From Strigamia acuminata (taxonomy: Eukaryota), in NCBI GenBank assembly GCA_949358305.1, contig OX442314.1, positions 28,520,001 through 28,584,000 on the forward strand: DNA of 64,000 nucleotides, written 5' to 3'. A model generated the notes under the pieces. That model made no database searches, had not been told where the DNA came from, and worked only from the letters and a program-made list of their open reading frames with translations. Positions 39,570 through 60,254 of this stretch are shown here, in pieces (within the stretch, counting starts at the first letter, position 1; each line of letters begins with the position of its first letter). The translations under genes and the position numbers were made by a program.

Positions 39570-39872
39570 GAAGTACATTCTTCCAGTTATATGAATGTAC
39601 GCCTAACTTTGTACTGTGTTCTACTACGTGGAAAAGTAGTTCTGTGTCAAAGCATCACCTTTGACAATGTTGGTATTCGAGCACAATGTCTGGAGTTCGA
39701 TTACACTTCTGGTGTTTTGGACTACTTTTTTGTGCCACTACACCAGTGAAATAGATCAACGTTGGAGTGGTTTTGAGTATAGAACTGTTCTTAAAAAAAT
39801 TATCTCTTACTGAAAAGTTTTGAGAAAAAAAGGTTTGAAATATTGGTCTACTCAGCTTTGTAACCTAAAACT

Positions 39873-40916
39873 TGTCACGTCGTAGTCGACTTTTTAACAA
39901 TGGTTTCGGAAATTTGAGAATTTCCAGGGATTGTAATAACCAGAAAATTTAGGTTCGCAGGCGCTGCAACTCTTAAAACTTTGCCGGGGGTGGTAGCTAG
40001 GTTAAGACAGCGTCTATTCGTGAAATCTGTATTTTTATGGGTGCAGGATTCAATTCGGGCGCCGTACAAAATGGCGAACGTTGATACTTCGAATTTAAGA
40101 CCAAAATATCGCTCTTCACTAGGGAAAATGTCGTCATATGCTAGGCGTACTTACGAAGAGTATATTTCTTCTTTTGGACACGCGCAAACGTTGGGTGAAC
40201 GCGCAAACAGGTACCAAACCGCAGACAACGTCGTCGAACCGTCGATAATGAAATGAATACGCAATTGAGACGAGTATGAGTTCAAAATGTCTAGGCTGAG
40301 GAGGAAGTCACAGTCGTGGCATAAAATGTATTGACGAATTAAGACCGTCGAATACGCCGCTTTTCCAGTAATTTGTACGCAAATAATGGGCAAATAATAA
40401 AGGTTGTGGTTAGATAGCCAACCATGAGAATTCGGGCTGCATAATGACCGTATGCGTTGAGACGCAACATAAATCGCACTTGGAAATCTTCCTAGTTAAG
40501 ACAGGAGATGTTGACTAGTCGAAGGCGAAAATTATTCTCTCTGTCGAAAATGTCTTGACAGAACAAGTCACCTCTGATCACATGTCAAAGGCCAAGTCAA
40601 TTCCCAATGCGGACCGAGCAGAAAACAGGCGATCAGGGGTGAAATATGCAAATTTAGAGCGCGATTATATCAACTTATTGCAGAATTCTCATGAATTGTC
40701 TGGATGGGGTGATTAAAACCAGGCCAAATTAAAGATAAACATCAAAAATAAGGAAAATAATATAAAGTAAAATAATAAATTTGGATTTGGGAAAAACAAA
40801 ATAATTAAAGGAAACTGGAACAATTTCTCAATAATATTGGGAAAAATTTAAAGGAAAGGCGCAAAATGCGCTTAAAATTTTGAAAATTATTACTGTCTAA
40901 AGTCAGGACCGTGACA
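39873..40916 (-). repeat. 3' LTR of element 1 (1044 bp)
   Basis: TGTCACG...CGTGACA; differs from 52457-53486 by about 5 substitutions and a 14-bp indel; adjacent minus-strand PPT AGGTGGGGGGGAA at ~40917-40929. Confidence 0.97.
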
Positions 40917-41748
40917 TTCCCCCCCACCTAGATGTTTATTATATGGTTTTTATATAATCAACATCTAAATGGAGTCAACAACATGATTGATAAAAATTTG
41001 AACATATAGATAAATAAAAATAATGAATCAACAATAGCAATCTCACTTATGAACACATAACAAAGGTAGGGATTTAGACAGACAGACGCAACAGACGCAC
41101 AACTTGGCGCAATTACAGACAAGAACAAACAAACACAAACAAATGGGTTTAGGAGAGGAATATTGTAAAAAATCGTTTGATTAAAAATTAATAGAATCAA
41201 TAGACGTTTAGGCGCTAATTACGACTAAATTCTAAATAAAATAATAAAATTTGTTAAATTATTTGATAACACTTGAAATTAACAATGGTATTTTTCGTTA
41301 TGACTAGAAAATAAAATAATTTAAGATTAATTAACAATGCCTATGGGTGACAAAATTTCTATAAAAATGTAGATTATTAGCAAACAAAAATATTGATTAG
41401 GCGCTGATTTGGCGTCAATTATCACAATATAAGGATAGCAAAATTTCAATGATCACAAATGGTTAATAAAAAATGATTGGCAAAAATGATTAGCAAAATA
41501 TAAATATCAAAAAATAAAAAGTTCGCAAACGAATATTATCTTCTTTCGTAGGCGTTTGAATTTTCACGGAACTTAACGTAAAATCTTCATAGAGGCGCAC
41601 AACAATCACATTTTAAACAATTATAACACTTATTGTTTGTATCACAATTATCACAATAAAGTCCACACACATAACAGTTCGTATATGGGTCTCAGGAGGC
41701 GCAAAGTCACTTTATAGGTTTTCGAAGTCAATTTTAGGGATCTTAATT

Positions 41749-44616
41749 CTAGAATGCAGACGCGCCCTGACCGTCCATCGCATAATAGACTAGTTTAAGC
41801 GCTGTTTTCACGAGGATCACTCTCACCTGTTGTTTAGAGGTCGCATAACACTTCCGGCTAATCCTGTTCACTCGATAATGGAAATGTACGACGTAATATT
41901 GTTTAATGATGGATAATAACTTTTCGCCCGCGTTGTGGTCAAGTTGCAAGTCCGAAAAGATGATTGTCTCGTAAAGGCGCGTCAGAATACTCCAATCCAC
42001 GACCAATTCGATTTTGGGCTCCCACGGCAATGAGTAGAAAATATCATCAATCGGAATAATCTCCTCCATGATCGCAAGGGCGCAGGTGGGCTCCTCCAAA
42101 CGCTTTTCTTTGGGTTTCGGGTTGACTGGCTCACGTAGACTTTCACGCGTGACAACCTCGCCTTGGTCGTCGTCGTTTTCCTTCGGTGGCGTCAAAATCA
42201 TTTTAGGCATTCTTGACATCAAAGGCGATCGACGTCCAGCCCCTGCACCGCCCCGTCCAACTCCAGGAAGTCTGAAGGGCTCGTCGGCCTGAATTACCTC
42301 AATTTTGTTGTGTTCCCGCGCCGCCAGAAATGCCTTGTGGTTTTCCTCGTCACCCGTTGATTCGCGAAGCGATTCGACATCCGACATCGAATAATCCACA
42401 TCCGATGATAACTCCGAGGCGAGTATTCCTGTGTCTGCCACGATTACGGGGTCGTATCGGAATGAATATTTGGTTCGGGGATCTGCCAATTTCGGATTCT
42501 CGGCAATTGCGTCCTCAAATTGTTGCACCAGTTTTTCAGGCGCCAACTCAATGAGAATTTTCTCTGAAAAGTTCTTGATTTCATCCTCCGTCATGATCAA
42601 TTCCGGGTCCAGTGGTGGCTTAGCGGGCGCATTTTTCTCGTCCTCAAGTCTCTGGGCCTCCCTGAGCGCGTCGGCCTCTCGAAATCATTTGACAGCGTCA
42701 CGACGACTCTGATGCATTTGGGTGATAATTTCTTTTAAATTAAAGTGCACGGCGTGCACAATGAGGTGCTGCACCGCGTGTTCGTCTCCGGTACAGTCTT
42801 TTGTCATCTTTGCTTCAATTTCCTTCGCGATGTTCCCGAGGCGTCCGAAAATCGTTCCGACGACCGTCTTGAAGTCTGAGGCGCTAACGTTGAAATCCAG
42901 GTTAATCGACATCTTGAAAAGTTCTTTCCATCCCTCAGATCTCAGGTTGATTCGTCCTTGGCCCCTGTTCTCCATGGGGTACAGAATCTCAAGCTCATGG
43001 CGCCGGAATATTTCGGACATCTGAGTGAAGATACGATCCGGGCGCATGGTACATCCGTTTCGGTCGAATCCCTGGAGATATCGTGGCTTCAGGGATGCGC
43101 ATCCTTCCGACGACGTCGATCCGCTCGAGACCGCTGAAATGGCTTTAGCAATTGGATTAGAAATCTTGCTCTCCAATTTCTTGATGTCGTGGATCTTTGC
43201 GCATTCTCCTGCATCCTTTGCAATCTCAGCAGCGATATTCGCGATGGATGAAGACGGTGTGAAGTTTAGCAACGCCTTAATATCTCGGTCAACCTGTGGG
43301 GAAAAATCAGCTGTTATTAATTTTTTGTTAAAATCTGCGATAGTGTCCATTTTTGTGTTTGTGGTCATAATCCCAGAATACGTAATCGGCACCGATGTCG
43401 CAACGACTGAAGTCATCATTTTTGGAGTCACATTCGATTGGGTCACAGTAGTGGCATCGACAGATCGGGCAGCTTGGCTCGATTCAGACGTCTCAATCGA
43501 AGATGATTTGTTCTTTACGACTCGAAAATATGGAATTATAATCGGCGCAGCAGCAGTGGTCACTGTCGTAACATTAGTCGATTTCGCCTCCGCCGCCGTC
43601 ACGCTCGATTCCGTTTTGATGATCGGGGTCGACATCGTGTTGATGTTGTTAATTTTTTCTCTCTCTCTTCTATTTTCTTCATTTTTTAGTACCTTTTTAG
43701 CCACTTGATCGTTTAACGAAAGTTCCTTAGCGGGCTCCACGACAAGCGATGCGGCAGGCGCTACTCCAACCGCTCCGTTTTCCTCGATGATGACTGAAGA
43801 GACGTCCAACGCTGGTCCGGATCGTCCCGTCACGAAGTGAGCGTCTCGGTTTGCCTCCGCTCCAATTCTTTTCGTCACTCTCTGTGTATATTCCTTCAAA
43901 CGATGTGCACTTCGCTCCTCGTATGTATGTCGTGGACGCAGATTTGAATGCTGAAACGGCAAGTCGGCTGCAACTCTTTCCGGCTCCGAATATGCTCTTT
44001 TCGCGTCCGCAATTACACCAGGCGCTGTTAAACATAGTTCCAGGCCCGATTCCACATCGTAGGTCTTTCCTTCAGGCGTCACAAACTGGTCCGGAAGTTC
44101 GGCAGGTTGCTCGCCGGCAATTATGTAGGCTCCCTCCGGATATTTCCAAGTCAACGGCCGGATTCCCTTCTCTTTCGCCAATTGCTTTATGCGTGCCAAA
44201 TATGATGCGTGCGCATGACGAAAACGAGCGATGGCGTTTGCACTGCCGAATGGAATCCTCGGCGGTGGAAAATCCACTCCAGCCAACGAAGTTTTATCCA
44301 TCGACTCATAACCAAGTACATATGCAAACATAAGGCGCATCCATTTCCGAAATTTGCAACGGCGCAAGTCACCGCCGCCCCGACACGCTCGGCATTCTCG
44401 TGGCGCCCGCAGTTGATAAATTTCAAATCCAGTTCCGCTACAAACTGGACACAATTCATAGTTTGGAAAACTTTGGTCGTTCGGGTGGTCTGGATGAAAA
44501 CGCGGTACTAGTCCTTCGTCCGACGCTTCGATTGGTGGCATTGGCAGGTACTTTGGATAGCCTTTTTGGGTTGGTTTTGGAATCGTAATTGTCACATTTG
44601 GATCGTAGGACGCCAT
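41749..44616 (-). CDS. Extra ORF3 of element 1 (955 codons, one in-frame TGA at 42685-42687), with an N-terminal DnaJ-type CxxCxGxG zinc-binding pair
   Basis: The 643-aa and 283-aa ORFs are in the same frame, joined by 28 sense codons after a single TGA (AVK*FREADALREAQRLEDEK...PELIMTEDE). Motifs CPVCSGTG and CRACRGGG at ~44371-44451. No signal peptide or TM segment seen. Confidence 0.75.
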
Positions 44617-45149
44617 AATAAATTATCGTAAAGTGAAACTAAAAGAAATGGAAATTTCCGGGAAAGAAAGAGTTATTTTAACTAAAATATTCAATTAAAA
44701 ATGAATTGTTGTGAGATAGAAAGTACTTACGGTTGATAGACGCACAATTTTTAACAATATTTATCCAATTTTAACAATTGTTAGATGTTTTAAGGCGACT
44801 ATTCAGACGCAAACTAATTTCAAACTAACTAAGTCGTGCCCTCACATGTCTTTAATACACGCGGTCTCGCTACGGGGTCGCTTCGTCACAAAATATGACA
44901 CGGACCTCTCGCGTGAACGAGATTTGATCACACACCTCGAAGAAGCATGAGTTTGGACTTAGTAAATTTACGTATCATCATTTTAAATTGATGAATTTCA
45001 AATTCCTAAACTAATCTTTACTTACTATTTTCAGCGTCTATCCTCCATAAATATTTGGTTTAAAGCAGGGAAAATTATAAACACAAGAAGGAAAGAGGAT
45101 TGGGTAAAGTAAAGAAAGAAATAAAATTATAAAATGAAAAGAAATTAAG

Positions 45150-46931
45150 TTATTTTATCGAAAATGAAGCGATAATGGTTTCAATTTCCGATGTAAACGC
45201 AGCAACATGTTTTTCGATAATTGTTGCGTCTGTGTGGTCTAGATCATCATCATTGTTGAACCAATGGCGCAATTCTACGACGTTATACGGCAGCATTCGA
45301 CGACCATCCTTGTCCATTAGAATGACAGTATTGGGCCCAGTTAATTTATGGATTACGTAAACGCCTTCCGTCCTCTGTCGAAGTCCTGCAGCAAACTGTC
45401 GGTCCGCTGATGACAATTGTCGATTTTTGATAGACACAAAATCGCCCGGTTTGAAATCATGTGGTCTTCTTTTTCGATCAAACCAACGTTTATGTCTAAT
45501 CTGAGCTTTTTGTAAATTTGCAGTGGCATTATTTCGCAATTCTCTCATCAATTCATGCGTCTCTCGCGCTCGTACTGGCGGTAGTGGCTGTCCATCGTCG
45601 GTGTCTGAATCGAAATCACCTGGATAACGCGCCTCTTGTCCCGTCACCATTTGATAAGGAGAATATTGAAGCGAAGCTTGATATGCTGAGTTGATTGCTA
45701 GCACAAAATATCTAATGTGAATGTCCCAGCGCACATGCTCTTCAATATAAGCTAAAATGCAGTTTTTTAATGCTTGGTTTAGTCTCTCGGCCAAGTTCCC
45801 TTGTGGATGATAAACAGCCGTGTAGCGATTGATGGCGCCAAAACTCTGACATGCAGCCTGGAATTCCATTGATCGGAAAGCTGGCGCATTATCACTGATG
45901 ATAACTTTTGGAAATGCCCATCGCTGAATAAATCCTTGCAATTGTTTGATTGTTGTTTTCCAGTCAGATGTCTCAGTCAATCTCACATCCAACCATCGAC
46001 TGGCGGCATCCACAATTACTAATGCGTAACAATGTCCTCCAATCGATCGGGGTTTTTTACCATAATAATCGATGTAAATTGTGTGAAACAAATGTCGTGG
46101 TTTGGCCATGATCATTGGTCCATATGGAAGGCGATTCAACGGCTTGGCTCGTTGACATGGTTCACATTTTTGAATCCAAAGTAAAACGTCCTCCTTCATT
46201 TTAGGCCAATAAACTCGGGCCCGAAGTCGATGAAGTGTTTTTTCAATTCCTAAATGTCCGCAGCTCGGCGGGTAATGCAGAGCTTTGAAATATTGTTCGC
46301 GTAACATTAAAGGCAAATAGATTTGTCTTCTACGGCGAATTTTATTTATGTCGATCGGTGGATAACGACACAACATTCCCTTATAAATAGCAAAATCTAC
46401 GGCACGATACCTGATACGCGCTGCTTGTACTTGGTCATTGGGCAAATGTCCTTGATCAAGATATTCGATTAATTCGGAGCTCCACGTGTCCTCGTGTTGT
46501 CGACGAATTATTTCGTTAATTGTTGGTATTAGACGAAAACATTGGTGATCTTGCGGCGCATCATGTGCTTGCTCGGCCTCATCTTCTTCTTCGTCTTGTT
46601 GTTCATCAACAATTGGTCGTCTCGATGCATTTCTTTGAAATTGTGATCGATCTTGACGCACTCGTTGTGGTATAAATCCTGCACGTCCCATCCATGCCGG
46701 TCGATAAGTTGTCGAATCGTCCGACGAATCCGAATCCGGACCTCCATATCCGTCAAAATTCGGTCGCACAGCTCCGGATGGTCCTGCAGGTGGGCTTAAC
46801 ATATTAGGGGTCGGAAATGATGTGGTCGGCACATTTGGTGATGGCAGGGGCAACATTAGAGGTGGCAAGGGTGCAACAGCTCCAGGAGGCGTCGAAACTT
46901 GTGCCTGCTGACGTGCCCTGGCTCGAGTCAA
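45150..46931 (-). CDS. Gypsy integrase portion of pol (out of frame with upstream pol)
   Basis: HHCC (HYPPSCGH...CEPCQ), catalytic D-D-E (IYIDY, ISDNA, AERLN), GPY/F-like region (EGVYVIHK). Confidence 0.93.
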   Translation of the reverse strand: MTRARARQQAQVSTPPGAVAPLPPLMLPLPSPNVPTTSFPTPNMLSPPAGPSGAVRPNFDGYGGPDSDSSDDSTTYRPAWMGRAGFIPQRVRQDRSQFQRNASRRPIVDEQQDEEEDEAEQAHDAPQDHQCFRLIPTINEIIRRQHEDTWSSELIEYLDQGHLPNDQVQAARIRYRAVDFAIYKGMLCRYPPIDINKIRRRRQIYLPLMLREQYFKALHYPPSCGHLGIEKTLHRLRARVYWPKMKEDVLLWIQKCEPCQRAKPLNRLPYGPMIMAKPRHLFHTIYIDYYGKKPRSIGGHCYALVIVDAASRWLDVRLTETSDWKTTIKQLQGFIQRWAFPKVIISDNAPAFRSMEFQAACQSFGAINRYTAVYHPQGNLAERLNQALKNCILAYIEEHVRWDIHIRYFVLAINSAYQASLQYSPYQMVTGQEARYPGDFDSDTDDGQPLPPVRARETHELMRELRNNATANLQKAQIRHKRWFDRKRRPHDFKPGDFVSIKNRQLSSADRQFAAGLRQRTEGVYVIHKLTGPNTVILMDKDGRRMLPYNVVELRHWFNNDDDLDHTDATIIEKHVAAFTSEIETIIASFSIK

Positions 46932-47143
46932 TACCTGATAATTTGGTGCGGTCTCTTCTTATTTTTAGAACCTTTTGGCCTGCCCAACTTTGGTTTAACC
47001 TGCTGTTGTCGTCCTTGCGCTCTTGTCATCACAGCTGCGTTATTTCGTTGCTGTGCCGCAGCCAATCCAACTCCAATAATGTTGATTATTGGTAATTTTG
47101 GCCAATCATTTGGGTCGTCAAAATAGGCGATGTAGCATGTTTC

Positions 47144-47634
47144 GGGGTGCCGTTCCAACGGCGAATCGTTTAAGGGCGAATCTGGCCATTCGGACGAATG
47201 GCGAATTTCGACCTTATTCCGTCCAAAAGCAGTCCCAATGGCAAATTTCTCCCAATTCGCCATTGGGAACGTATTTGGACCTTCTAATGACGAATTGGTA
47301 GAAATTAGCCACAGGAGCGCGTCATGAATCTGCCGCGACAAGCCGACGCAAAAAAATGGTTTTGGATCAAAAAACCAGTAAGGTTAGGTTCGCGGGGGGT
47401 CAAGGGGGGGCTGCGCCCCCCCTTGTTAGCCCTTCTTAGGAATTGGGAGTCGCGGTAGTTGACGCCCACAGATTCGCCATTGGAAACGCAAATAACGTTT
47501 CCAATGGCGAATTTCAATACACACGTTTCCAATGGCGAATTTGCCCAGATTCGCCATTGGAATGTCAAAATACCTTTCCAATGGCGAATTTTCAAAATTC
47601 GCCATTAGGTGATTCGCCGTTGGAACGGGTACCC
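47144..47634. mobile_element. MITE inserted in pol of element 1
   Basis: TIR GGGGTGCCGTTCCAACGGCGAATC / GATTCGCCGTTGGAACGGGTACCC; TSD CATGTTTC (47136-47143 and 47635-47642); internal CCAATGGCGAA repeats. Excision restores the pol frame (IDET|CYIAYFDD). Confidence 0.9.
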
Positions 47635-50468
47635 CATGTTTCATCAATGAGAGGCGAGTCGTCCGCATCTAATGGTTCCGATGGTTCCACAGGCGCACGG
47701 CTAAGGGCATCCGCAACACGATTCTGTGCTCCTGAACAGTAAAGAAATGTAAATTTGTACTCACTGAGGGACAAAACCCATCGTGCCAGGCGTCCTTTTG
47801 GTTCTCGCTGCTGGAAAAGCCACTTTAACGACAAATGATCGCTTTCTAAATAAAAATTCATCATCTCAAGATACACACGAAATCTCTTGACCGCCCAAAC
47901 CGCCGCTAAGCATTCAATCTCGGTGACGCTGTAATTCTTTTCAGCAGAATTTAATGCACGCGATGCAAAGGCGATAGGTGTTCGTTCACCTTGATCATTT
48001 AGTTGCATGAGGGCAGCGCCCAAACCTGAATAGCTGGCGTCTGTTTGTAGTATGTATGGCTTGGTCCAATCTGGGAATTTTCGGTGTAGAGTTGGTTCTG
48101 CCAATCCTTTCTTGAGTGAATCAAATGCCTCTTGGTGTTGAATCGTCCAATTCCACTCAGAATCTTTTTTGAGTAAGGGGCGAAACACCTCGCATGTTTT
48201 TGAATAATTTGGGAAAAATGACTGATAATAACCAATCATTCCTTTGAATCTTTGTAATTCTTTGATGTTGGTAGGCGCCGGAAAATATTGAATCGCCGTC
48301 ACCTTGTTTGGATTTGGTTTAATATGTCCAGCCTCCACAATGTGTCCCAAAACCTCGAGCGATGTTCTGCACAATTCCGTCTTGTTGGCGTTCATGGTGA
48401 ATCCCGCTTCATCCAAGGCTTGAAGAATTATTTTGAGATGTTGTACATGCTCCTCGAAAGTTTTGCTGAAAATTATCACGTCATCGAGATAAACGAACAC
48501 GAACTTGTAAAGATATTTCGACAAAGTTTTGTTCATGACTCTCTGCAGAGTTGCTGGGCCATTAATGGGTCCAAACGGCATTCTCACATATTCGAAAAGT
48601 CCTCTGTGCGTAATAAATGCGAGAAATCTCTCGTCACCTGGACGCACTCCAATCTGGTGGAAAGCTTCTCGTCCATCTATGATCGAAAACCAATTTGATC
48701 CTCCTAAATAAGAAAATATAATATCGATGTCGGGTAGTGAGTAGACATCTGGTAAAGTTTGAGCATTCATCGGTCTAAAATCCATGGCTGTACGCCAATC
48801 TCCAGTTTTCTTTGGAACAACAACAGGCGCCACCGCACAATCACTTTTTGATCGACGAATAATGCCTTGCTTTAGTTTTTGGTCCAAATAAGCGTCAATT
48901 ACCATCTTTTTTGCTGGGTTAACGGGTCTTACAGGCACATGAATTGGTCTAAAGTCCGGTTTTAAATTTACTTTAAACTGAGTGTTGTTGCATAATCCAA
49001 CCTCCTCGCGAAATACTTTCGAAATTGGTCGAAGAGTCTGAATTAATAAACGAATTTGGGGTACCGTCAATGATGACCACAGCTGGTCGTAAATCCAATC
49101 CAGTTGCGTTGGATCACTGCTTGGTTGATATTGTAGTACGTTAACATCCAGAGGCGGCTCCGAAATCGTCGAATGATCGTGTACTCTGGCCATGAGCGCA
49201 TCTTCATCCACACGACGCAAAAGCTGTCTTCCCTGTGTGTTAAGCTGTTTCACTGTTGGTGACAATTCATAAAGGCGTCTCCGCTGTCGTCTTGCACGTC
49301 TGCGTTGGCTAAGCGTCGAAAACAATGATGAATTGAATTTTCTTGATTTTTTAATAGAATCCTTTCTTCTTGGTGACCATATTAATGACCATTGATCCCG
49401 TGCACGATTCCGAATCCTCTTGATTTGGTGCTGAGCATCGTCATTTGGATATTCAAAAATCTCTTGCGATAAAGGTCGATGTTCTAGAAGAATACAATTA
49501 ATGTTGTTAATTAATACCTTGGGCACATCCTTGGGGCTGTCCTTTGTATCATCGGGCTTCTTGATGGGAAATAAAAGAACAGATTCTGACTTATTAGCTT
49601 GTTCTAAAGTCATGAATTGTCTTCGCTCTGGCGATCCCTTCAAATACCACTGGCACAACTCAAAGTCTGCGCACAGACCAACCGCTCTGCAGAAATCTCT
49701 TCCCAGCAGAAGGTCCTCTGATGTTTTGGGTATAATTAAACAAATGAAAGAAATAATGGCCAAAGGCGCGCGCACCGACAGTTTAACAGATCCCTTAACT
49801 GGAATTTTGTCATCGGCCGCTGTACGCACTGTTTCGTGAAGTTCGAGCAATTCCAAACCCATATTTGCTTTAAGTTTGTTAAATAACGACTCCGACATTA
49901 CACATGTCTGAGCGCCTGAATCTAAAAGTGCGACAAAACTCACGTTGGCCCATGTTATTTTGATGTATGGTGCTTCTCTGTTGAAGCGATCAGTCTTCGT
50001 AATTTCGATTATTGGCTCTTCGGATTTTTGCAATTCCTCGGGCGACAAAAGAACGAAGTTTGTTTGCAACGCCTCACTCTGCGTTGTCAACGAAGTTGGT
50101 TTTTTGGGGGTTTCCTTGGCTTTCACAGACGAAAGTTGCGCTGATTGTGTTGGTTGTGGTGTTACGACACCGGGTGTTTTTGTTTTTGATTTACTTGAAT
50201 CTGATTTGATTAATGTAGTTAATTTAATGTCCGTAGACGGGGTTAATGATTTGTTGTTGTCTTCTCGAACAGCAGATGGCGCCTCTGGTGTCGGAGTAGA
50301 CGGTTTTGTACTTCCATCGATGTCTGGTGATTCCTCAGTCTTCTTCTCAGTAGAGTCCTTGATGTTTGTATCCGACCCACTCTCTGGACTCATGCTTTGA
50401 GCAGGCCGCTTGCGTTTCCCGACTGACGACTCCATTCCTTGCCACAAACGGGGCACACAGGCCTCCAT
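47592..50468 (-). CDS. Gypsy pol: protease, reverse transcriptase, RNase H (interrupted by the MITE)
   Basis: LLDSGA protease; RT YVRMPFG...VYLDDV; RNase H LQTDAS...EIECLA...SDH...ADALSR. Confidence 0.96.
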   Translation of the reverse strand: MEACVPRLWQGMESSVGKRKRPAQSMSPESGSDTNIKDSTEKKTEESPDIDGSTKPSTPTPEAPSAVREDNNKSLTPSTDIKLTTLIKSDSSKSKTKTPGVVTPQPTQSAQLSSVKAKETPKKPTSLTTQSEALQTNFVLLSPEELQKSEEPIIEITKTDRFNREAPYIKITWANVSFVALLDSGAQTCVMSESLFNKLKANMGLELLELHETVRTAADDKIPVKGSVKLSVRAPLAIISFICLIIPKTSEDLLLGRDFCRAVGLCADFELCQWYLKGSPERRQFMTLEQANKSESVLLFPIKKPDDTKDSPKDVPKVLINNINCILLEHRPLSQEIFEYPNDDAQHQIKRIRNRARDQWSLIWSPRRKDSIKKSRKFNSSLFSTLSQRRRARRQRRRLYELSPTVKQLNTQGRQLLRRVDEDALMARVHDHSTISEPPLDVNVLQYQPSSDPTQLDWIYDQLWSSLTVPQIRLLIQTLRPISKVFREEVGLCNNTQFKVNLKPDFRPIHVPVRPVNPAKKMVIDAYLDQKLKQGIIRRSKSDCAVAPVVVPKKTGDWRTAMDFRPMNAQTLPDVYSLPDIDIIFSYLGGSNWFSIIDGREAFHQIGVRPGDERFLAFITHRGLFEYVRMPFGPINGPATLQRVMNKTLSKYLYKFVFVYLDDVIIFSKTFEEHVQHLKIILQALDEAGFTMNANKTELCRTSLEVLGHIVEAGHIKPNPNKVTAIQYFPAPTNIKELQRFKGMIGYYQSFFPNYSKTCEVFRPLLKKDSEWNWTIQHQEAFDSLKKGLAEPTLHRKFPDWTKPYILQTDASYSGLGAALMQLNDQGERTPIAFASRALNSAEKNYSVTEIECLAAVWAVKRFRVYLEMMNFYLESDHLSLKWLFQQREPKGRLARWVLSLSEYKFTFLYCSGAQNRVADALSRAPVEPSEPLDADDSPLIDETWGTRSNGESPNGEF
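50373..50420 (-). promoter_or_regulatory. -1 programmed ribosomal frameshift signal (gag/pol)
   Basis: Slippery G GGA AAC in the gag frame (50420-50414), a 5-nt spacer, then stem CGGCCTGCTC / GAGTGGGTCG; pol is in the -1 frame. Confidence 0.8.
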
Positions 50469-52306
50469 GATTGCCTGTCAGACATGAACCATTTGTCCGT
50501 TGGTGTTTTTCTCCACATAGCATTCTTCGGGAGCTTTGGCTCAGAAGGCGCTTCTTTAGCTGCTGGAAAAATGACAACGTCTTTGGCACATGTGTGCTGT
50601 GTTTCCGCTCTAGGTGTTGGCGTAGTAGTCGCATTCATGACGTGGACATCAGACTTTTGTGCTGCCGCCGATGCAGACTCCTTTGGCGGGTCCCTTTTTG
50701 ATTCCTCGCTGTTGGGATCTTCTGGATCAATTGCACAAGTCGACATGTCCTCGAGCAACGCTGTTAATACTTTGTTGAATCGTGAAAAACGACCAGACCT
50801 GGACGAAGTAGATTGTTGATTTAACTTCTCCTCCTCCGTTCTGGTACGTGTGGCAGGACCCACTCCTGCGGGCAAAGGCATCTCTTGGTCCGAAACTCCG
50901 CACTGTCTGTACTCAAAAGTCCGCAACGAATCCAACTGAAGGCGATTATCGACGTCGTTGCCCATTTTGACTGCGTCGTCGATCGTCCTGATGCACCAAG
51001 AGCGCATTAATTGTACGACCTGAGTTTGCATCATGCCCTGAACTCGTTCCCACTGCAAGCCCTTGTCCTTGTATCCAGCAATGTTTAAATAATGAATCAT
51101 CTCGCTGAGGAACGACATAGTTGATTCCCCTGGCTTTTGTTTGCGCTGAGACAACTTAACATTAGCTAAAGCTGAATTAATGGAAAATACCTGCCTGAAA
51201 ATTAATTCAAAGTCCTCCCAATTGTTAGGTTTTGGAGTTAGAGCCATCCACCAACGTTGCGCTCTATTTCGAAGCGCGAGAACCACGTATACTTTCAAAT
51301 ATATTCCCTCCGGTGCTCCCATGGTAAACATGTGCGCATATAGCTTACCCAGGAACAAGTCCACTGTGTCGAAAGTAGCTTCATCCGGGTTGAAGTATGG
51401 AATTTTTTCAACTTTAAGTTTATACCTTCCAACCTGAGCGGCTTGACGCTGATCCTCCGACTCCAACGAGAGTTGAGATCTCGTGTGAGGGTGTTGTCTT
51501 GAGGCGCTGAGTGGTATGCCTTGACTACCTCTTTGAGCGGAATCCGGGTCAGGATTTGTTGGTGGGTCCCGTGGAACATTGAAAGTCGTGTCTCCCTGTT
51601 GTGAATGTTGTTGGCGTCGTCTCGGAGAATAAGAGCCAGTGCGTCGGGGTTCTGACGCACGTCCAGTATCTCCAAAAGAAAAATCGGCTCCCCGAGTTTC
51701 TTCTTGACCACGACGTGTGGCCCCTGAACCTGCTTCTGGTGCTGGTGGTTCAGGTCGAGTTTGCTCGTTGTGCGAGTGGATAAACTCCTCCACTCTGTCG
51801 TTCAGCTCGCGCCTAATTTGCCTCATTGATTCGAGCAACTCCTGGCGAAGTTCGTGTTGTAACTCCCTTCTATCCTCTCGTAATACTCTCATCAATGCTT
51901 CCATCGACAATGCAGGTGGATTCCTTCGATGTTGTTGTGGTTCCGGTTGCATAAACGTAGGTTGGTAAGGAGGCGGCGGTCCTCGTTGAATTTCTTCTCG
52001 AACCGCCCGCATCCCGTCCACAACTCGTCTTCTCTCCATGAGTGAGTCCTGCAAATGGCGTCTATTTTCCTCCCATTGTTCTCGTGCCGCAGCCGCTTCC
52101 TGTTCATGTTGGAGTTGATCCGCTTCCATTTGGGCGTATGTCCTCCAAGGATTGGAAAATGGTACGTCTGTAGAAATTGGTTGTACTAGTAGATCTTGTT
52201 GTTGGTCTGGCTCATGGATAGGTGAGTCTGGAAGTGGCAAAGTATGCGCTAGTTCGGCGTCTACGTCCGAAACACTGGACTCTGACAGAGCGTCGCGTGA
52301 AGCCAT
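50390..52306 (-). CDS. Gypsy gag (638 aa)
   Basis: Coiled-coil N-terminus and Ty3-type capsid motifs (LRNRAQRWW, WEDFELIFRQVF, RKQKPGESTMSF); lies between PBS and pol. Confidence 0.9.
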   Translation of the reverse strand: MASRDALSESSVSDVDAELAHTLPLPDSPIHEPDQQQDLLVQPISTDVPFSNPWRTYAQMEADQLQHEQEAAAAREQWEENRRHLQDSLMERRRVVDGMRAVREEIQRGPPPPYQPTFMQPEPQQHRRNPPALSMEALMRVLREDRRELQHELRQELLESMRQIRRELNDRVEEFIHSHNEQTRPEPPAPEAGSGATRRGQEETRGADFSFGDTGRASEPRRTGSYSPRRRQQHSQQGDTTFNVPRDPPTNPDPDSAQRGSQGIPLSASRQHPHTRSQLSLESEDQRQAAQVGRYKLKVEKIPYFNPDEATFDTVDLFLGKLYAHMFTMGAPEGIYLKVYVVLALRNRAQRWWMALTPKPNNWEDFELIFRQVFSINSALANVKLSQRKQKPGESTMSFLSEMIHYLNIAGYKDKGLQWERVQGMMQTQVVQLMRSWCIRTIDDAVKMGNDVDNRLQLDSLRTFEYRQCGVSDQEMPLPAGVGPATRTRTEEEKLNQQSTSSRSGRFSRFNKVLTALLEDMSTCAIDPEDPNSEESKRDPPKESASAAAQKSDVHVMNATTTPTPRAETQHTCAKDVVIFPAAKEAPSEPKLPKNAMWRKTPTDKWFMSDRQSWRPVCPVCGKEWSRQSGNASGLLKA

Positions 52307-52434
52307 GTTGAAATAATAATATGTGTGCCGGCAAAAATAAGTAATTAATTAAATAAATATAACGACCTATACTTGCGTAGTCTTCACTGAAGAAAATGGT
52401 GGTTTGTGTTCTCTTAGAACACGTTTCGAGTTGA

Positions 52435-52452
52435 ATCCTGTCTAGCTCGCCA
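52435..52452 (-). promoter_or_regulatory. Primer-binding site (tRNA-Arg-like)
   Basis: TGGCGAGCTAGACAGGAT lies 4 nt inside the 5' LTR and resembles the complement of the tRNA-Arg(ACG) 3' end (TGGCGAGCCAGCCAGGA). Confidence 0.7.
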
Positions 52453-52456
52453 AGAT

Positions 52457-53486
52457 TGTCACGTCGTAGTCGACTTTTTAACAATGGTTTCGGAAATTTG
52501 AGAATTTCCAGGGATTGTAATAACCAGAAAATTTAGGTTCGCAGGCGCTGCAACTCTTAAAACTTTGCCGGGGGTGGTAGCTAGGTTAAGACAGCGTCTA
52601 TTCGTGAAATCTGTATTTTTATGGGTGCAGGATTCAATTCGGGCGCCATACAAAATGGCGAACGTTGATACTTCGAATTTAAGACCAAAATATCGCTCTT
52701 CACTAGGGAAAATGTCGTCATATGCTAGGCGTACTTACGAAGAGTATATTTCTTCTCCTGGACACGCGCAAACGTTGGGTGAACGCGCAAACAGGTACCA
52801 AACCGCAGACAACGTCGTCGAACCGTCGATAATGAAATGAATACGCAATTGAGACGAGTATGAGTTCAAAATGTCTAGGCTGAGGAGGAAGTCACAGTCG
52901 TGGCATAAAATGTATTGACGAATTAAGACCGTCGAATACGCCGCTTTTCCAGTAATTTGTACGCAAATAAAGGTTGTGGTTAGATAGCCAACCATGAGAA
53001 TTCGGGCTGCATAATGACCGTATGCGTTGAGACGCAACATAAATCGCACTTGGAAATCTTCCTAGTTAAGACAGGAGATGTTGACTAGTCGAAGGCGAAA
53101 ATTATTCTCTCTGTCGAAAATGTCTTGACAGAACAAGTCACCTCTGATCACATGTCAAAGGCCAAGTCAATTCCCAATGGGGACCGAGCAGAAAACAGGC
53201 GATCAGGGGTGAAATATGCAAATTTAGAGCGCGATTATATCAACTTATTGCAGAATTCTCATGAATTGTCTGGATGGGGTGATTAAAACCAGGCCAAATT
53301 AAAGATAAACATCAAAAATAAGGAAAATAATATAAAATAAAATAATAAATTTGGATTTGGGAAAAACAAAATAATTAAAGGAAACTGGAACAATTTCTCA
53401 ATAATATTGGGAAAAATTTAAAGGAAAGGCGCAAAATGCGCTTAAAATTTTGAAAATTATTACTGTCTAAAGTCAGGACCGTGACA
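52457..53486 (-). repeat. 5' LTR of element 1 (1030 bp)
   Basis: Near-identical to 39873-40916. Confidence 0.97.
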
Positions 53487-53662
53487 AACTATTGAGGCAA
53501 CCAAGCTAATCCTCAATTAGGACACATTATTGGGTCATACTTGTAAGTAGAAGAGAGGAAACACAAAAGAAAGGAAATAATTTATTTTGGAAATACATTC
53601 CACATGATAGGATTACCGAAATATCGGCCGATAGCCGATACCGATATCGGTATCGGTCAAAG

Positions 53663-55018
53663 TCTAGGAGAAAGCACTCTTTTAGATTGAACAAGAAAGG
53701 ATCACAAAAGGATACTGTTGCAGTGTACGGGCTTCCCTTGTCAATTTCAAAATGGCCACCACACAAGTTAGATAAGGGACAAATAAACTTCCAATTTCTC
53801 TAATGATTGCAGATGAAGCATTCAAACCCAAAAGTAAGCATTTTTCTAATTTTACTACAATGCATACATACATTAACAAATGTAAATTGCATTATTGAAG
53901 AAGTAGACTGCATGAGGTTCCGCTGACTCGTAAGAATAGATTCTATCTTCGCTCCAGGTGGCCGCACATACAACTGAGGAGATAAAAATATCGATCAGAT
54001 TCTACTCTCAACAAACATCAGAAAATGTTGACAGAGAGGCTAATAAACAGTGCACGTGCACCTACCTGCCACAAACCATGAGAACATGTGATGTCTTTAT
54101 TTTTTATAAAGCTTAACAAAACTGCTGACGCGGATCCAGCAAACTTCATTGGCTCTAAAATGAATTAATAACTCACGTAATTTTAATATTTATTTAAATT
54201 CTTGTAATACTTAGTTCGAACTCGAAGCATGTTCCCGAATGCATGTTTACATCATGCCTACTGAAGGTATCGTTTTTTTTCCTCAACCCAGCTCCCTTAT
54301 GAAAGATTAAATAATTATACGTCAGAAATAAACGAGACAACAAGAAAAAACAACTACGTTCAGTACTGCATCCACGACGTATTCATCAAATCTCGGTTTC
54401 TGGTTTTTCCAAACCTTTTCGAGTGATGGTTTTTTATCACTCTTCATTAGATCAATAAAATGAACTTCGCACTGGTGTTTTTTAATCTGCTTTGCATATT
54501 TTTTCGTGTACGCTGCCGTTAAAAGGCCTTCAGTGCAGGCAATTACATTAGGCATGTAAATTGTGTCGTTTTCGTGAACTGTAACGACTGTTTTGGTCGG
54601 TTCGCTGTAGTAAAACTGGATTTTAGTTGCGACGACATACGATGCAATTACAGCACCTGCAAACAGAACGGTGTATTGCACATAACGAGTGGTTTTTGAT
54701 TTATATGCAATAATTTTTTTGTTTTTTCCCTCCAGCTTTCCGTGAATCTTCACTATTTTGCTCGCAATTTTTTTCGTCGACGGCCTTCTTTTAACGCTCT
54801 CAAATAGCCGCTTAGCAATCCATCGAATTACAGCCAATAAAGACAACAAGGACAAGCCCAATGCAAATCCCAAATTTCCACCTAAGTCCACCAAAAGTGC
54901 AATTTCGTCATAGAGATATTTTTCAGTTAGGACGACGTATGTCGCATCATTTTGCTTCATTTTGGTAATTACTATATTTTCATCCGTTAATTTCTCCACA
55001 ACGAGGTGGTAATGATAT
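53663..55018 (-). pseudogene. Partial duplicate of the tandem DEG/ENaC gene, disrupted by Gypsy element 2
   Basis: Colinear and highly similar to ~33403-34771, including introns. ORF 54322-54999 retains the TM2-linker-TM1 junction. The exon is cut after GATAT at 55018, and the 3' exons (32174-32900 equivalents) are not seen. Confidence 0.85.
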
Positions 55019-56038
55019 TGTCGCGCTCAACTCTAACCGTCGCTAACTCGTGGGTTGATTACTTAATTCGACTAACTCACTACCGCTTTGCTCAAGCGGT
55101 TTACCCAAAGAAATGATTACACAGATATAAAAGGTAAAATATAATATAGATTTATTCTGTGGGACAATGTACAGATATATCTTATATATATATATATATA
55201 AAAGGTAGGTAAAAGGTAAATCGGAATGGGTGAAGGGAAATGGAAAGGTAAAGGTATGATGAAAGCTGGCTGGAATCGGCGAGGTCGTCTGTTGTCTCGG
55301 TCGTGTCCAAGATGGCGTCCTCGTTGTGGCAACGTGGTGTCGTCTTGGGCCGGCGTGGCAATATGGCGTCCTCGGCTCGTCTCTGGCTGGTCCTTCGGGC
55401 TCACGCTGGTCGGGCGCGAGTGAATGCTTAGTTAAAAGGCTTACTTCGGGCTGTTGTCTAGGTTTTTGTGTGGTGTCCGGCGATCACACAGCGGCGGACT
55501 CTTCTGGCTCCCGGCGGTCACACAGCGGCGGGAACGCTCGTCGTGGTTTTACTGCAGTTTAGGCTTGTGCGACCGTTTGTCTGCACAACTCGCTAAACTG
55601 GAGTGGTTTTTACTATTTCTAGCTGGTGTGCTAAAATAGTGTGGTAATCTTATCTCGCAGGTTACTCTGCGGAGTTTGACACTGACCAAACGTACTCACG
55701 GTAAATTGTCCTTTGTCCTTGGTCAATCCCAGTATATTTACTTGGGCCTGATCTTGTAGGACGACGGGTTTTACGTGTGTTTCTCGTTTGATGGTTGTGT
55801 TGGTTCTGCCCGCTCAGTGCAAGGCACATTCCTTTGCACAAAGCGGGGTTGACAGGTGACCGGAATCACCCAATGGTGGGGTGGACGAGCCATCCCCACT
55901 CCCTCAGGGCAGACGCCTGTCCATTGACTAGATGTCAATGCACTGAGGGAAGGGAGACGCGCTTGCGGCTCCCCTTACACCCGAAACGAGGTCACGAGAG
56001 AAACTCTTCGTTGACCCCGGTCCAGTCGGGTCACAACA
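55019..56038 (-). repeat. Putative 3' LTR of element 2 (~1020 bp)
   Basis: Minus strand begins TGTTGTG directly after PPT GGAGGGGGAAG (56039-56049) and ends CGCGACA exactly where DEG/ENaC homology resumes. The partner LTR is not in the window. Confidence 0.8.
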
Positions 56039-56074
56039 CTTCCCCCTCCGAGCTCAGACCGTGGGGCTGAGCGA

Positions 56075-59000
56075 TCACTTCTTTCCTGGGGGACCCGACA
56101 CTGAGTCCGTCACCTGGGCGTAACTCACTCCAGGGACAGGCGGTTGAGTGCCGGGTGGCGCGGGTAGATCGCCTACTAACGCCGAGGACCGATCTCGGGG
56201 GTCCTCATGCTCCGTAATGAAGCATAATGCATGGCCGTCAACTGGCTCATGCGGGGCACGCGTCCTCTCGTGTAACCAAACGCTCGGGATGTAGGCGGAG
56301 AAGCCGGTGTTCGTATGCCGGATGGCATTGGCTTCCGCTGGCGTCACTGGCACACGGTGGGCTCTCAGCAACCTCTGGTGGAAGATGAGGTCTCTAGTCT
56401 TCCGGATCTGGTTGTGAAGCCAGATGAAGACTGATTTGCCTTTGTCCCGCTGCGCGAGGATAAACCTCCTGGTCGCCGTCGTCATCGAGAGATGGGGAAA
56501 CTCTTCGATGATTCGCCCGTAATAGTCTGGCGGAGGCGGTGCCGGCTTCGGCTTCTGGGTGGCCGCGGGAATAGCGGCTTGCGTCGTTGTCGCCGCTCGG
56601 GCCGGTGAGGTCCCGGGCGGTGTCGGCTTCGTTTGCTCGACGGACCTGACGGGTGGCGTTCGGCACAGCAAGCGCTTTGGTTTACCCGCCACTTCGAACA
56701 GGGCGGGTCCTTGCGGGGATATCTCCGCAGGCATCGGTGGCGGAATCGGAACTCCGCTCGTCGGCGAGATCACCATTTCTACATCCTCTGCCGATTCTTC
56801 CGTCTGGATGGTCAAGGCGCGCAGTTGTTGGGTAGGCGCCGCTGTCCAGGTGGCGGAGGTATAACGAAACGCCGTGCTTCGCAACTTGTACCCCTCAAAT
56901 TCGGGGTTTACCACATCCCTGGTTAGCTCGTACCGAGTCAACACAGGGTCGGGCAGAATGGAGCTCCACTCTGCGAGGAGTGCACGGGGAACCTGTACAC
57001 CCTCTCTGTCCACGACAGACCATGCGGCCATCGCCTGACGCCCTTCTCCGAAGAGTGCTGGGGTTAGCAGCTGCATCATGACCTTGGTCAATGATAGCTG
57101 TAGGCTGCGACGATTCACTGGATTCGATCGCTCCGAATCCGCAGTGAAGGCACACGAGAGCTTACTCATCATCGCCGTTGCCCATTCGATGAAATATCGC
57201 TGGGCCTGATCCACACCTCGCAAGGCGGGCGCGGAGACTCTTGGGTCTTCCATCACGAAGCGAAACGCTGAGAGCTCGGAGATAGTCGGATTGGCGGCTT
57301 CTCTCGCGAGTCGCGCTTCTTCGTCTCGCCTCTCGAAAAACAGGGCCGAGGAACCGGATCGGGGTTGGCTCGGCCTGTAAATGCCGGTCAAATTGGCTCG
57401 ACATTCCTGCGCAATGCTCTGTCCAACGGGGAGAGGGACTGAGCGGTCGGTGGGTAAATCCGGCGGATCGCTCGAATTCAACAACGACGGCGGCGGCAGG
57501 TTCGGAGGCGGCTGCGTCTTGGTCGGCAGCGTCGGCGTCGGCAGCGGTGGTGTTGGCTGCGTCGGCGGTGGTGGCGTCTCCGTCGTCTGCACTCCAGTCA
57601 TTGCGACTTGGAGCGCCGGGAGATGTTGTCCGGAGCCTGAAGGCTGCACGATGGCGGTTGGCATGCCATCGGGTCGTGGTCGCGAATTAATGTAGTCTGC
57701 GAGCCACCTTGCCACCTCGTGTGGGGTCACCTTCCCGTCGGTGACAACACCCATCTTCCTGGCGTGTTTCATCGCGGGATCGAAACGTGTCAGTTTCGTC
57801 CGCTTCATCTGAGTCAGAATCTCGCGAAGGTCCCGCGTATCTGCCGCTGGGACGTTTCGCTCACCTGACTGGCTACCACCTCGTCGACCCGCTCTCTTGG
57901 AGGCGTAGGCGGGTTCGGGGATGGGACGGCCCCGAGCTTCGCACCTCGCGAAGTATCGCTCTTTGCGATCTTTTTTCCGCTGCTCGCGATGAGTCAGCGG
58001 ACGTCTAGAAGTGCTGGGACGAGAGACTCGCTCTTCGTCACCAGACATCCAAACCTCCTTGCACTCCTTACCGTCTTTAATCTGACGGTTTATGAAAATT
58101 CGCGGTCGGGAATACTGCGAAGGGTCACGCACCGTACTAGTGGATGGCCCAGCTTCGTTGCCTTCAGTCGTGTTTTGAGCGACACGCTGCTTCTTGGTTG
58201 TCGCTGGGGAACGCGACTGGCTGTCCCCGGCGCCTTTGGAGCGCTTGCGCTTCCGCGGGTAGCTGCTCTTGGGCCCCAAAATCCCCAGGTAGTGGAGCTG
58301 CCACATCTCGGCTTGGGACGTCAAAATTCCCATCCGAGGTCTCCACTGGGGCGTACTCTCTCCCAATCGCAGCCTCTCAAACCACAGATGAATATCATCC
58401 GCGGTCATCCCCTCGTTTTGGAGGATGCGCTCGGCCACTGCCGTAGCGGTATCCACCAGCTGTTGTCTATAATGCTGGTAGATGGCCTCACGGGCCTCTT
58501 CTGTCTCGGCTGCTCGCCACGCATGCAGCACGTGTTCCTCCGCCGGGTTGCCAGTGTACTGACTTGACAATCCGGGGTGGAAAATCGGCGATTTCGGGTC
58601 ATCGTCACGAGCTAACTCTGTGGCGATGCCTTCGCGCATTCCCTCCGGGAACGTATCCAGGAGCGTGCAGTCTCGTACCCAACGTCGGGCGATGCATCGG
58701 GAATGTAGTATTCGCAGGCGCCAAGGGTCGGCGTCTTCGCCGAAACATCGTCGGTAAAAATCGGGCAGCGCGCCTCGAAATATCCCGCCACGAGTGATGC
58801 AAGCGGGGTCTAATGGTCCCCATGTTTTACGTAGTGCCATCTGGAAGGATGGAGAAATAAACAATTAATAAAAAGTTAATATTTAAATACGTAGATAAAT
58901 GGTTGGTTTCGAGGGACGTTGCCAGTACGTGCAGCCGTCCGTCGAGACCGATTCCTGTCTATCGGTGCAAACGTAGGACGAATTGTCCCTCGTCGGATAG

Positions 59001-59778
59001 AAAAAGAGAAGTCATCACGTGAAAAATCTGTCTCATGTCCAAAACGCACAGCGAGACGGAATCGAGCCTTTAATCTGGATTCTTATCATCAGATTTTACT
59101 TCAAATTAATTCTAACATTAATTAGAACATTACTAATAATTAAATTAATAATTATCAGTCATTCGTAAAAAGAATTCGTCGGGTGTAAATTATTACTAAA
59201 ATCGCACAATAAATGTGCTTGTCGAAATGTTATTAAATAAATAAACCTAATAAAGAATTATTCCGAAGTCGGACTTTGTCTAATTTTTAAAAAAGTTAAA
59301 GTCAAATTAAATTTATCCAACACACCGAAAAATTCATCGTACGAATGTTAAGTTGCATCAATTTGATGCGTCAAATTACTTGTGGAGAAAAAATATTCTT
59401 TTACAGAATATTCTCCCCTTGTCATAAAATTATCTATGGCTCGAGCCCATTGTCTCGCTCGTGACTCAAGTCATGAGGAATTTTCGAGACGCGAGGCGAC
59501 GTGAAGTCTGCGCTCGCACCTCGAAAACAAATTAACAAGGAAAAAAAAATACGATCGTGTGAGCGATCGCGGTTAATAATTAATTATACGCTATTTCGAG
59601 TGCAAAGCACTCATGTCAGGTATTAGTCAACAAAATTTCTTCTTCAGCAGCACGGAACTAGTTCTCATGTGCCGATGCCGACTTCTACCTGATCGGGCTG
59701 GACTTGGTTTACATCGCGGTCCCAGTTTTCCTCGTCCTCGTGCTCGATGGCCAGCACGTCGTTCTCTTCCTCGTCCAT
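56075..59778 (-). CDS. Extra ORF3 of element 2 (main exon 58840-56075, ~920 aa; probable upstream exon 59778-59689), unknown function
   Basis: Long intact ORF, Arg/Pro-rich, NLS-like PRKRKRSK, no TM segment. Acceptor TTTATTTCTCCATCCTTCCAG|ATG at 58841. Upstream CTCGCCATGG opens MDEEENDVLAIEHEDEENWDRDVNQVQPDQ, ending CAG|GTAGAA in phase 0. Confidence 0.7.
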
Positions 59779-60254
59779 GGCGAGGAGCGCGCACAAAAAT
59801 CTCAATCACGATTTAAAAAGGATGATAAAACTATCTCAAAAACTCGGTGAAAAACTCGGTAAAACGTTAAAAACGAGGATCACGCACGAATGCAGCGATC
59901 AGCTGTGAAAAGCGGAAGTCTGTGTGAACACGAGGTAATCGCGATGGATTCTGGGTAATATACTCCAGAACCCGGGTGTTTGAGACTAGTGCGCACCTAC
60001 CCGTGCGCATGTTACGCTACGGGTCTCCTTTGTTCTCACTCCCGTGCGCGATTGCTGCTACGGGGTCTTTTGCACGCGGTATCCGACCCGTGCCGATAAT
60101 TTTGCTACGGGTCCCGCGTTTCCACGCCATCTCGTGACGCGAATTCGACCGATATCCGCTTTGTTGGACTTAGCGAAATTTTCTGCGACGTGATGGCTTG
60201 CACTATCGGTCGATTACATTTATTTTTAGTGCCGCCATCGACTCGTAATTTATT

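Follow-up and report, generated by a model that had tools for sequence, protein, structure and literature searches.

Evidence for large non-env accessory genes downstream of pol in two distantly related Ty3/Gypsy retrotransposons of Strigamia acuminata

INTRODUCTION

Animal Ty3/Gypsy retrotransposons are usually drawn as gag-pol or gag-pol-env. What, then, are two open reading frames (ORFs) of more than 900 codons that stand behind pol in Strigamia acuminata? They lie in a 64,000-nucleotide stretch (GenBank assembly GCA_949358305.1, contig OX442314.1, positions 28,520,001 to 28,584,000), referred to below as the window, which contains two minus-strand Ty3/Gypsy retrotransposons: element 1, complete at positions 39873-53486, and element 2, which runs past the window edge. 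A preliminary description of the window, made from the sequence alone, had proposed that both elements carry a soluble accessory gene in the position of env, with its own promoter and intron. Having examined the copies, the proteins, and the expression signals, we hold with high confidence that these ORFs are real non-env accessory genes in two Gypsy families. Their mode of expression and their function are more tentative and are weighed in the Discussion.

RESULTS

Two long sense-strand ORFs between integrase and the polypurine tract

In each element, one long ORF lies on the element's own sense (minus) strand, between integrase (IN) and the polypurine tract (PPT).

41749..44616, minus strand: ORF3-1, 955 codons, with an in-frame stop at 42687-42685 in the window copy
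56075..58840, minus strand: ORF3-2, 921 codons, open

Non-coding DNA separates pol from ORF3 (533 nt in element 1 and 1,414 nt in element 2), which agrees with the arrangement first described. When 1,000 second-order Markov simulations were run for each ORF, the longest frames reached 373 (ORF3-1) and 526 (ORF3-2) codons; the lengths of both ORFs are therefore beyond chance. Two details of the preliminary description had to be revised. The 955-codon span of ORF3-1 stood, while its continuity did not, because the in-frame stop splits the frame into 643 and 311 codons. In element 2, a gene of about 950 codons beginning at 59778 had been proposed; the 921-codon frame was recovered, and the first exon is doubtful, since its donor at 59688 is weak and the exon may instead be a separate 37-codon ORF. 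The dissimilarity between the elements that had been noted by eye was confirmed by alignment: the long terminal repeats (LTRs) of elements 1 and 2 gave no blastn-short match, and ORF3-1 and ORF3-2 are unrelated (best BLASTP E value, 0.94).

The ORF3s are family-wide and under purifying selection

Contigs from four public runs (X1 to X4) were aligned over window positions 40800-60700. Summed contig depth, which does not equal copy number, was 353 for a host exon bin in run X2, 6,668 to 9,727 for the ORF3-1 bins, 9,629 to 13,098 for the element 1 gag bins, and 42,344 to 72,460 for the ORF3-2 bins. The same excess over the host exon was seen in X1 and X3, and X4 covered ORF3-1 in one bin only. 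The depth of ORF3-1 was of the same order as that of its own gag. The ORF3s are multi-copy, family-wide parts of each element family.

At the position of the ORF3-1 stop, all contig depth differed from the window in four of four runs (19, 8, 13, and 1 contigs). The stop, like an insertion in pol and a frameshift described below, is a lesion of the window copy. Programmed readthrough of the stop was considered and rejected, because other copies do not have it.

Differences between the window and the contigs were taken from the best 40 of 963 rows for positions 40800-60700 and from the best 40 of 152 rows for positions 56060-59960, the latter in X3 and X4 only. In the first set, 27 rows fell in classed frames and 13 were set aside (12 outside frames and 1 at the stop, counted apart). 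Among these best 40 of 963 rows, 9 of 10 differences in ORF3-1 were synonymous, or 9 of 11 if the stop is included as non-synonymous (expected, 0.297; p = 5e-4), as were 8 of 15 in element 1 gag and pol (p = 0.04). Among the best 40 of 152 rows, ORF3-2 had 22 synonymous differences out of 38, with 16 residue changes and no stops (expected, 0.304; p = 4e-4; crude omega, 0.32), and codons 28-183 and 418-687 contained none of the 16 residue changes. A value near 1 for non-synonymous relative to synonymous change was not seen in these crude counts. It tempers the result that they compare a single copy with pooled contigs, in rows picked by read support and not by effect, and that they fall short of a formal dN/dS.

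Indels point the same way. Ten were tabled for element 2; the two in predicted coding DNA (18 and 3 nt) kept the frame, and of the 8 in non-coding DNA, 7 had lengths not divisible by three. In the candidate first exon (59665-59778) the sole tabled indel was one of 3 nt. A Fisher test of frame against position gave a p value of 0.07; by length, none of seven frame-shifting indels fell in 73% of the stretch (p = 1e-4). Both ORF3s are under purifying selection.

The ORF3 proteins are orphans without a membrane segment

In a crude hydropathy scan (not SignalP), the highest 19-residue Kyte-Doolittle mean was 1.44 for ORF3-1 and 1.07 for ORF3-2, and neither protein had a hydrophobic N terminus. ORF3-1 and ORF3-2 are without a membrane segment, and the earlier claim that both lack a signal peptide and a transmembrane (TM) anchor is upheld to that extent. 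Neither contains an R-x-K/R-R (furin-like) site, and cysteines are few (12 in ORF3-1 and 10 in ORF3-2).

ORF3-1 has a pair of CxxCxGxG motifs at residues 56-63 and 75-82, and two such motifs did not occur in any of 20,000 shuffles. The pair gave a faint match to Pfam DnaJ_CXXCXGXG (E values of 0.009 to 0.033) and would form one zinc site; Pfam found no J-domain in this protein. A Ser/Thr-rich linker spans residues ~330-430, and the middle and C-terminal parts are predicted to be helical. ORF3-2 is basic (pI 9.7), with a stretch resembling a nuclear localization signal (NLS), RKRKR, at residue 196; a basic disordered stretch (residues ~150-350) and a Pro/Thr-rich stretch (residues ~400-480) alternate with predicted helical blocks. 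The GC content of ORF3-2 is ~60%, unlike that of pol. HP1-, PPxY-, and KEN-like short motifs were dropped as evidence, being single matches without a control.

Searches for relatives were negative. None was found for either ORF3 among proteins of near length in a 5.8-billion-protein set, for ORF3-2 among the shorter proteins of that set, for ORF3-1 with HMMER over 1.84 billion representatives, or for ORF3-2 and residues 1-643 of ORF3-1 in the ESM Atlas. Against PDB sequences, the best E values were 0.93 and 0.7. Metagenome contigs gave nothing for ORF3-2 and element 2 pol, viral contigs gave nothing for element 2 pol, and the protein-set and metagenome-contig searches revealed no sister element outside the source organism. 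At an E value of 0.1, Pfam returned no env family for either protein, and neither matched a Gag family. PHROGs and NCBIfam matched the CxxCxGxG stretch only (E values of 0.001 and 0.049). No match to env or to an already described ORF3 family was thus found in Pfam, PHROGs, or NCBIfam. Similarity to the elements' own Gag and Pol was likewise absent (best E value, 0.30), and the ORF3 proteins contain no CCHC knuckle.

Whole ORF3 proteins gave no Pfam match to SGNH/GDSL or DEDDy blocks. A faint Lipase_GDSL_2 match in ORF3-2 (residues 76-152; E value of 0.062) was rejected as a GDSL enzyme, since there is no GxND and the only GDS lies beyond the matched stretch, in a disordered region. AlphaFold models built from single sequences could not be used (mean predicted local distance difference test scores [pLDDT], 35 and 40). 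With these low-pLDDT models, Foldseek against viral structures gave template modeling scores below 0.1, and VIA-align gave best Z scores of 6.0 (a helical hairpin) and 3.6, neither of them meaningful. A search of the literature by titles and abstract starts, with subscription journals and Repbase entries outside its range, found no description, for arthropod Gypsy elements, of a large ORF3 that is not env and has an internal promoter.

Predicted promoter and splice signals upstream of both ORF3s

The spacers between pol and ORF3 contain the following candidate expression signals.

44639..44730, minus strand: intron of 92 nt predicted in the ORF3-1 5' leader, with a GTAAGT donor at 44730 and a pyrimidine-rich acceptor at 44639 that precedes the ATG by 22 nt
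44813..44879, minus strand: predicted internal promoter of element 1, from motifs; TTAGT initiator (Inr)-like sites at 44832, 44828, and 44817, and CCCGTAGC at 44876-44869
58841..59688, minus strand: predicted 848-nt intron of ORF3-2, with a strong acceptor that adjoins the ATG at 58840 and a weak donor, CAG|GTAGAA, at 59688
59665..59778, minus strand: acidic 30-codon candidate first exon (59778-59689) of ORF3-2, or a separate 37-codon ORF
59903..60000, minus strand: second possible intron, 98 nt, with a GTAGGT donor at 60000 and an acceptor at 59903 that might just as well be joined to an LTR donor
60000..60113, minus strand: three CCCGTAGC...GCACGGG repeats, each an imperfect palindrome (stem-loop fold z, -3.2)
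60219..60254, minus strand: two AATAAA hexamers directly 3' of the element 2 pol stop

Splice signals had been reported just upstream of both ORF3s, and they are present. A background for these layouts was drawn from 1,265 ATGs in window DNA outside the elements, with patterns that had been picked after viewing the sequence. For element 1, 55 of the 1,265 ATGs had an acceptor, 1 also had a donor, and none also had a TYAGT; the element 2 layout, in which the acceptor adjoins the ATG, was seen once among the 1,265. Each splice layout was thus matched by a single background ATG. The element 1 spacer contains no acceptor-like match upstream of the donor at 44730, and that donor therefore looks like the point where a first exon stops. 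The same layout recurs before gag in the 5' LTR of element 1, with TCATTT at 52840, a donor at 52738, and an acceptor at 52387. TTAGT and TCATT are here presumed to be initiator-like from their resemblance to the consensus; they would agree with an arthropod host, as the DEG/ENaC genes described below agree with an animal one.

CCCGTAGC occurs four times in the window, each time upstream of one of the two ORF3s (expected, 0.52; 0 of 100 shuffles). When the 128 nt before the TTAGT cluster were considered, an 11-mer in common was reached in 11 of 1,000 shuffles. None of the public runs is recorded as RNA. Among 15 of 53 contig joints for positions 40800-60700 and the single joint for positions 56060-59960, none fell at a predicted intron, which speaks neither for nor against splicing. 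From these motifs, an internal promoter in element 1 is plausible and is the reading that we favor somewhat; for element 2 such a promoter is tentative, and we lean slightly away from it.

Two further observations concern the transcripts of element 1. The LTR donor at 52738 and the acceptor at 52387, before the gag ATG, delimit a predicted intron that would excise the primer binding site (PBS); if this splice occurs, the gag-pol mRNA could not prime reverse transcription. An AATAAA (40935-40940) lies just before the PPT, and the LTR of this element contains none. This AATAAA could terminate the ORF3-1 mRNA, in which case it must be leaky for full-length RNA to be made.

Structure of the two elements and their surroundings

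Element 1 has the order LTR, PBS, gag, protease (PR)-reverse transcriptase (RT)-RNase H, IN, 533-nt spacer, ORF3-1, AT-rich tail, PPT, and LTR. The LTR pair (~1.04 kb each) differs at 5 of 1,031 aligned bases and by one gap, and TG..CA ends, a target duplication, a PBS, and a PPT were all found.

39869-39872 and 53487-53490: 4-bp target duplication flanking element 1
39873..40916, minus strand: 3' LTR of element 1, TGT..ACA ends, from alignment of LTR with LTR
40917..41748, minus strand: 3' untranslated region, ~830 nt, 29% GC, with AATAAA at 40940 and the PPT adjoining the LTR
45150..46958, minus strand: integrase frame (H2C2 and rve domains), cut off from RT-RNase H by copy-specific lesions
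47136..47642, no strand assigned: insertion in pol of ~490 bp resembling a miniature inverted-repeat transposable element (MITE), with imperfect terminal inverted repeats and an 8-bp target duplication
47592..50477, minus strand: pol, with protease, RT, and RNase H (Pfam)
50390..52306, minus strand: gag (weak Retrotrans_gag match, E value of 1.3e-4)
52435..52452, minus strand: PBS, with 10 of 12 nt, counted by eye, equal to the tRNA-Arg(ACG) 12-mer in the supplement of PMC13524379
52457..53486, minus strand: 5' LTR, with TCATTT at 52840 and a GTAAGT donor at 52738; acceptor at 52387 before gag

The window copy of element 1 is decayed, its pol being broken by the MITE-like insertion and by a frameshift before IN. 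A natural division between IN and the rest of pol was rejected as an explanation, because the insertion carries a target duplication and is bypassed by contigs of runs X1 and X3. The insertion itself (47136-47642) has inner repeat units in both orientations, and read depth climbs across it.

Of element 2, only the 3' LTR and PPT of its termini lie inside the window; gag and the 5' LTR are outside. The 3' side of pol consists of the 1,414-nt spacer, ORF3-2, the PPT, and a 1,020-bp LTR, which abuts a host exon of the DEG/ENaC family (Pfam ASC).

55019..56038, minus strand: 3' LTR of element 2 (TGT..ACA), with GTGAGT donors at 55699 and 55080 and AATAAA at 55156
60255..63998, minus strand: pol of element 2 (RT, RNase H, IN, and a weak SH3; Pfam), open to the window edge

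Among PDB sequences, element 2 pol is most similar to Ty3-G (E value, 1.6e-103), and the Pfam domains of both elements follow the PR-RT-RNase H-IN order of Ty3/Gypsy. Because they are only 38% identical in RT-RNase H and 27% identical in IN, elements 1 and 2 belong to distant families. An integrase C-terminal motif common to both looks Osvaldo-like. Long elements with LTRs of ~1 kb or more and mostly 4-bp target duplications are features of the Osvaldo lineage as well (PMC3286476). Culex Osvaldo elements, in contrast, are described there as invariably having a tRNA-Lys PBS, whereas the PBS of element 1 is Arg-like and that of element 2 lies outside the window (PMC3286476).

The DEG/ENaC exon belongs to a tandem pair of paralogues (33402-36641 and 53662-55018) that share 94% identity over 1.37 kb; an exon of one paralogue is interrupted by element 2, and the two paralogues have element 1 between them. 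At 38030-39065, two 500-nt arms that are 99% complementary and separated by a 36-nt spacer form a near-perfect 1-kb palindrome, which is either a foldback element or an assembly artefact. A GC-rich island (58%) at 1996-3553 contains overlapping frames of 167 to 468 codons on both strands, and the three frames scanned gave no Pfam match. Short-period tandem arrays (10- to 23-nt units) occur at 9265-9563, 12901-13137, 23899-24114, and 31802-32124, one of them palindromic, and there are several small inverted-repeat elements, for example at 7940-8346, 16000-16143 (tandem), and 37170-37425.

DISCUSSION

The proposal that both elements carry non-env, soluble accessory genes is supported by family-wide depth, purifying selection, and the lack of a membrane segment. 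The further idea that they share a single lineage-wide module is not: the two ORF3 proteins are unrelated (E value of 0.94) and hence are not one shared module, the elements are only 38% identical in RT-RNase H, and the protein-set and metagenome-contig searches found no sister element outside the source organism. We suggest instead that each Gypsy family would have acquired its own ORF3 gene independently, that the ORF3 would be made from a separate spliced mRNA, apart from gag-pol, and that the product may have an intracellular, probably nuclear, role in favoring expression of the element or blunting host silencing. This working model follows the pattern of foamy virus Tas/Bet or of maize Grande gene23, in which a downstream gene would act back on its own element. 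Its independent origins, transcript structure, location, and role are what we infer, and as a whole the model stands in our judgement evenly poised between right and wrong.

A nuclear, host-interacting regulatory role, taken alone, is somewhat doubtful. It would fit the small helical domains set among disordered linkers, the one-site zinc motif in ORF3-1, and the basic NLS-like stretch and possible acidic first exon of ORF3-2. A number of findings weigh against the model. ORF3-1 has no NLS-like match, and the folds are too poor for a functional test. CCCGTAGC was chosen post hoc, and 25 of 300 shuffles also yielded an 11-mer common to both spacers. No downstream promoter element follows any upstream Inr-like site at +28, and in element 2 there is no TCAKTY or TYAGT near 59930. 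GTRAGT donors in both LTRs (52738; 55699 and 55080) could feed the ORF3 acceptors, and with the good acceptor at 59903 in element 2, LTR-driven splicing fits equally.

The strongest rival is that the accessory genes are expressed in the manner of env, from spliced RNA that begins in the 5' LTR, without a promoter of their own. ORF3s of LTR retrotransposons typically come from spliced messages (PMC5408684), and acceptors stand before both ORF3s, including the one at 59903 upstream of the candidate first exon. We nevertheless regard this as unlikely: it would leave the donor at 44730, 92 nt before its acceptor, superfluous, three TTAGT sites lie ~90 to 100 nt upstream with no acceptor-like match above the donor in the spacer, and a pair of AATAAA hexamers follows the element 2 pol stop. 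That the ORF3s are structural or cytoplasmic proteins (a second Gag-like scaffold, or a protein for RNA packaging or particle trafficking) and not nuclear regulators would suit the basic, Pro-rich ORF3-2 with its PPxY-like motif at residue 770, the absence of an NLS-like match in ORF3-1, and the stem-loop repeats upstream of ORF3-2, which could be RNA signals. The ORF3s have, however, no likeness to the elements' own Gag or Pol, no CCHC knuckle, and no Gag-family match in Pfam, and we consider this role improbable.

Two other explanations concern what the genes are. Passive cargo, in the form of captured host or nested-transposon DNA, might come with promoter-like, splice, and poly(A)-like signals of its own and a GC content unlike that of pol, as in ORF3-2, and ORF3-1 is broken in the window copy. 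The synonymous excess, the frame-keeping indels, the absence of the stop from other aligned copies, and the lack of a host homologue in the protein-set searches make this explanation very improbable; capture may account for the origin of the ORF3s, not for their upkeep. Highly diverged env or other fusogen genes would occupy just this position, with splice acceptors just upstream. The ectodomains of errantivirus env are flanked by a signal peptide and a TM segment, or by two TM segments (PMC13524379), whereas the ORF3s have no hydrophobic segment, no R-x-K/R-R site, few cysteines, and no env-family match. This reading is largely refuted by the hydropathy scan, and we give it almost no credence.

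How new, then, are genes of this kind? Non-env third ORFs are an already known class, to which ORF3-1 and ORF3-2 add large orphan non-membrane proteins. The idea is less novel than first proposed, since the literature on other Ty3/Gypsy elements already contains non-env ORF3s and an accessory gene with its own promoter. The bdelloid rotifer LTR retrotransposons Juno and Vesta have non-env third ORFs downstream of pol, and the likeness extends to family-specific, independently acquired ORFs in animal Ty3/Gypsy elements (PMC5408684). The bdelloid ORF3s are DEDDy exonucleases, GDSL esterases, or small transmembrane proteins, whereas those described here are ~950-residue orphans with no enzyme motif set (PMC5408684). 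Grande gene23 of maize encodes a nuclear accessory protein, has its own promoter, and runs antisense to gag-pol; it resembles the ORF3s in lying between pol and the 3' LTR, in being conserved and present in most copies, and in having no database match (PMC7264820). Presence and conservation in most family copies were found for both ORF3s from depth relative to gag and from synonymous excess, in contigs only. In contrast to ORFs of the Grande type, which are antisense, ORF3-1 and ORF3-2 are in sense orientation, have predicted introns, and occur in an animal; the additional sense ORFs of plants are env-like (PMC7264820). Errantivirus env shares with the ORF3s the slot after integrase and a Ty3/Gypsy pol, and differs from them in its signal peptide and membrane segments; the ORF3s are also without a furin-like site or env-family match (PMC13524379). 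Nothing decisive for the ORF3 question was contained in the accessible parts of PMC5408687 and PMC7998251.

In foamy viruses, the accessory genes for Tas and Bet lie near the 3' LTR and are expressed mainly from an internal promoter, with splicing, and Tas activates transcription (PMC13220597). The likeness to the ORF3s is a functional analogy for the model; foamy viruses are retroviruses with env, and no sequence similarity was found. A bolder form of our model is that a foamy-like second transcription unit would have evolved repeatedly in animal Gypsy elements, with an internal promoter, marked in both families by the same CCCGTAGC site, from which a large regulator peculiar to the lineage (for example, one that transactivates or counters silencing) would be made by way of a spliced mRNA; the cis-acting module would be common and the protein cargo swapped, giving two new protein families. 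We put this forward as a long shot.

In plant transposons, accessory proteins change more quickly than the core enzymes, and more contacts with the host are predicted for them (PMC13547354). Each of the two families here keeps an extra gene of 2.8 kb under selection, although such a gene is costly to a genome that is reverse transcribed, and this implies that it serves a purpose beyond the core cycle. The significance is bounded in that extra non-env ORFs are a known class, the ORF3 proteins are orphans without a fold, and their expression is predicted. Retrotransposon-encoded regulators and suppressors of silencing are little known in animals; ORF3-1 and ORF3-2 are two concrete candidates, and they come with exact predicted start sites and splice junctions.

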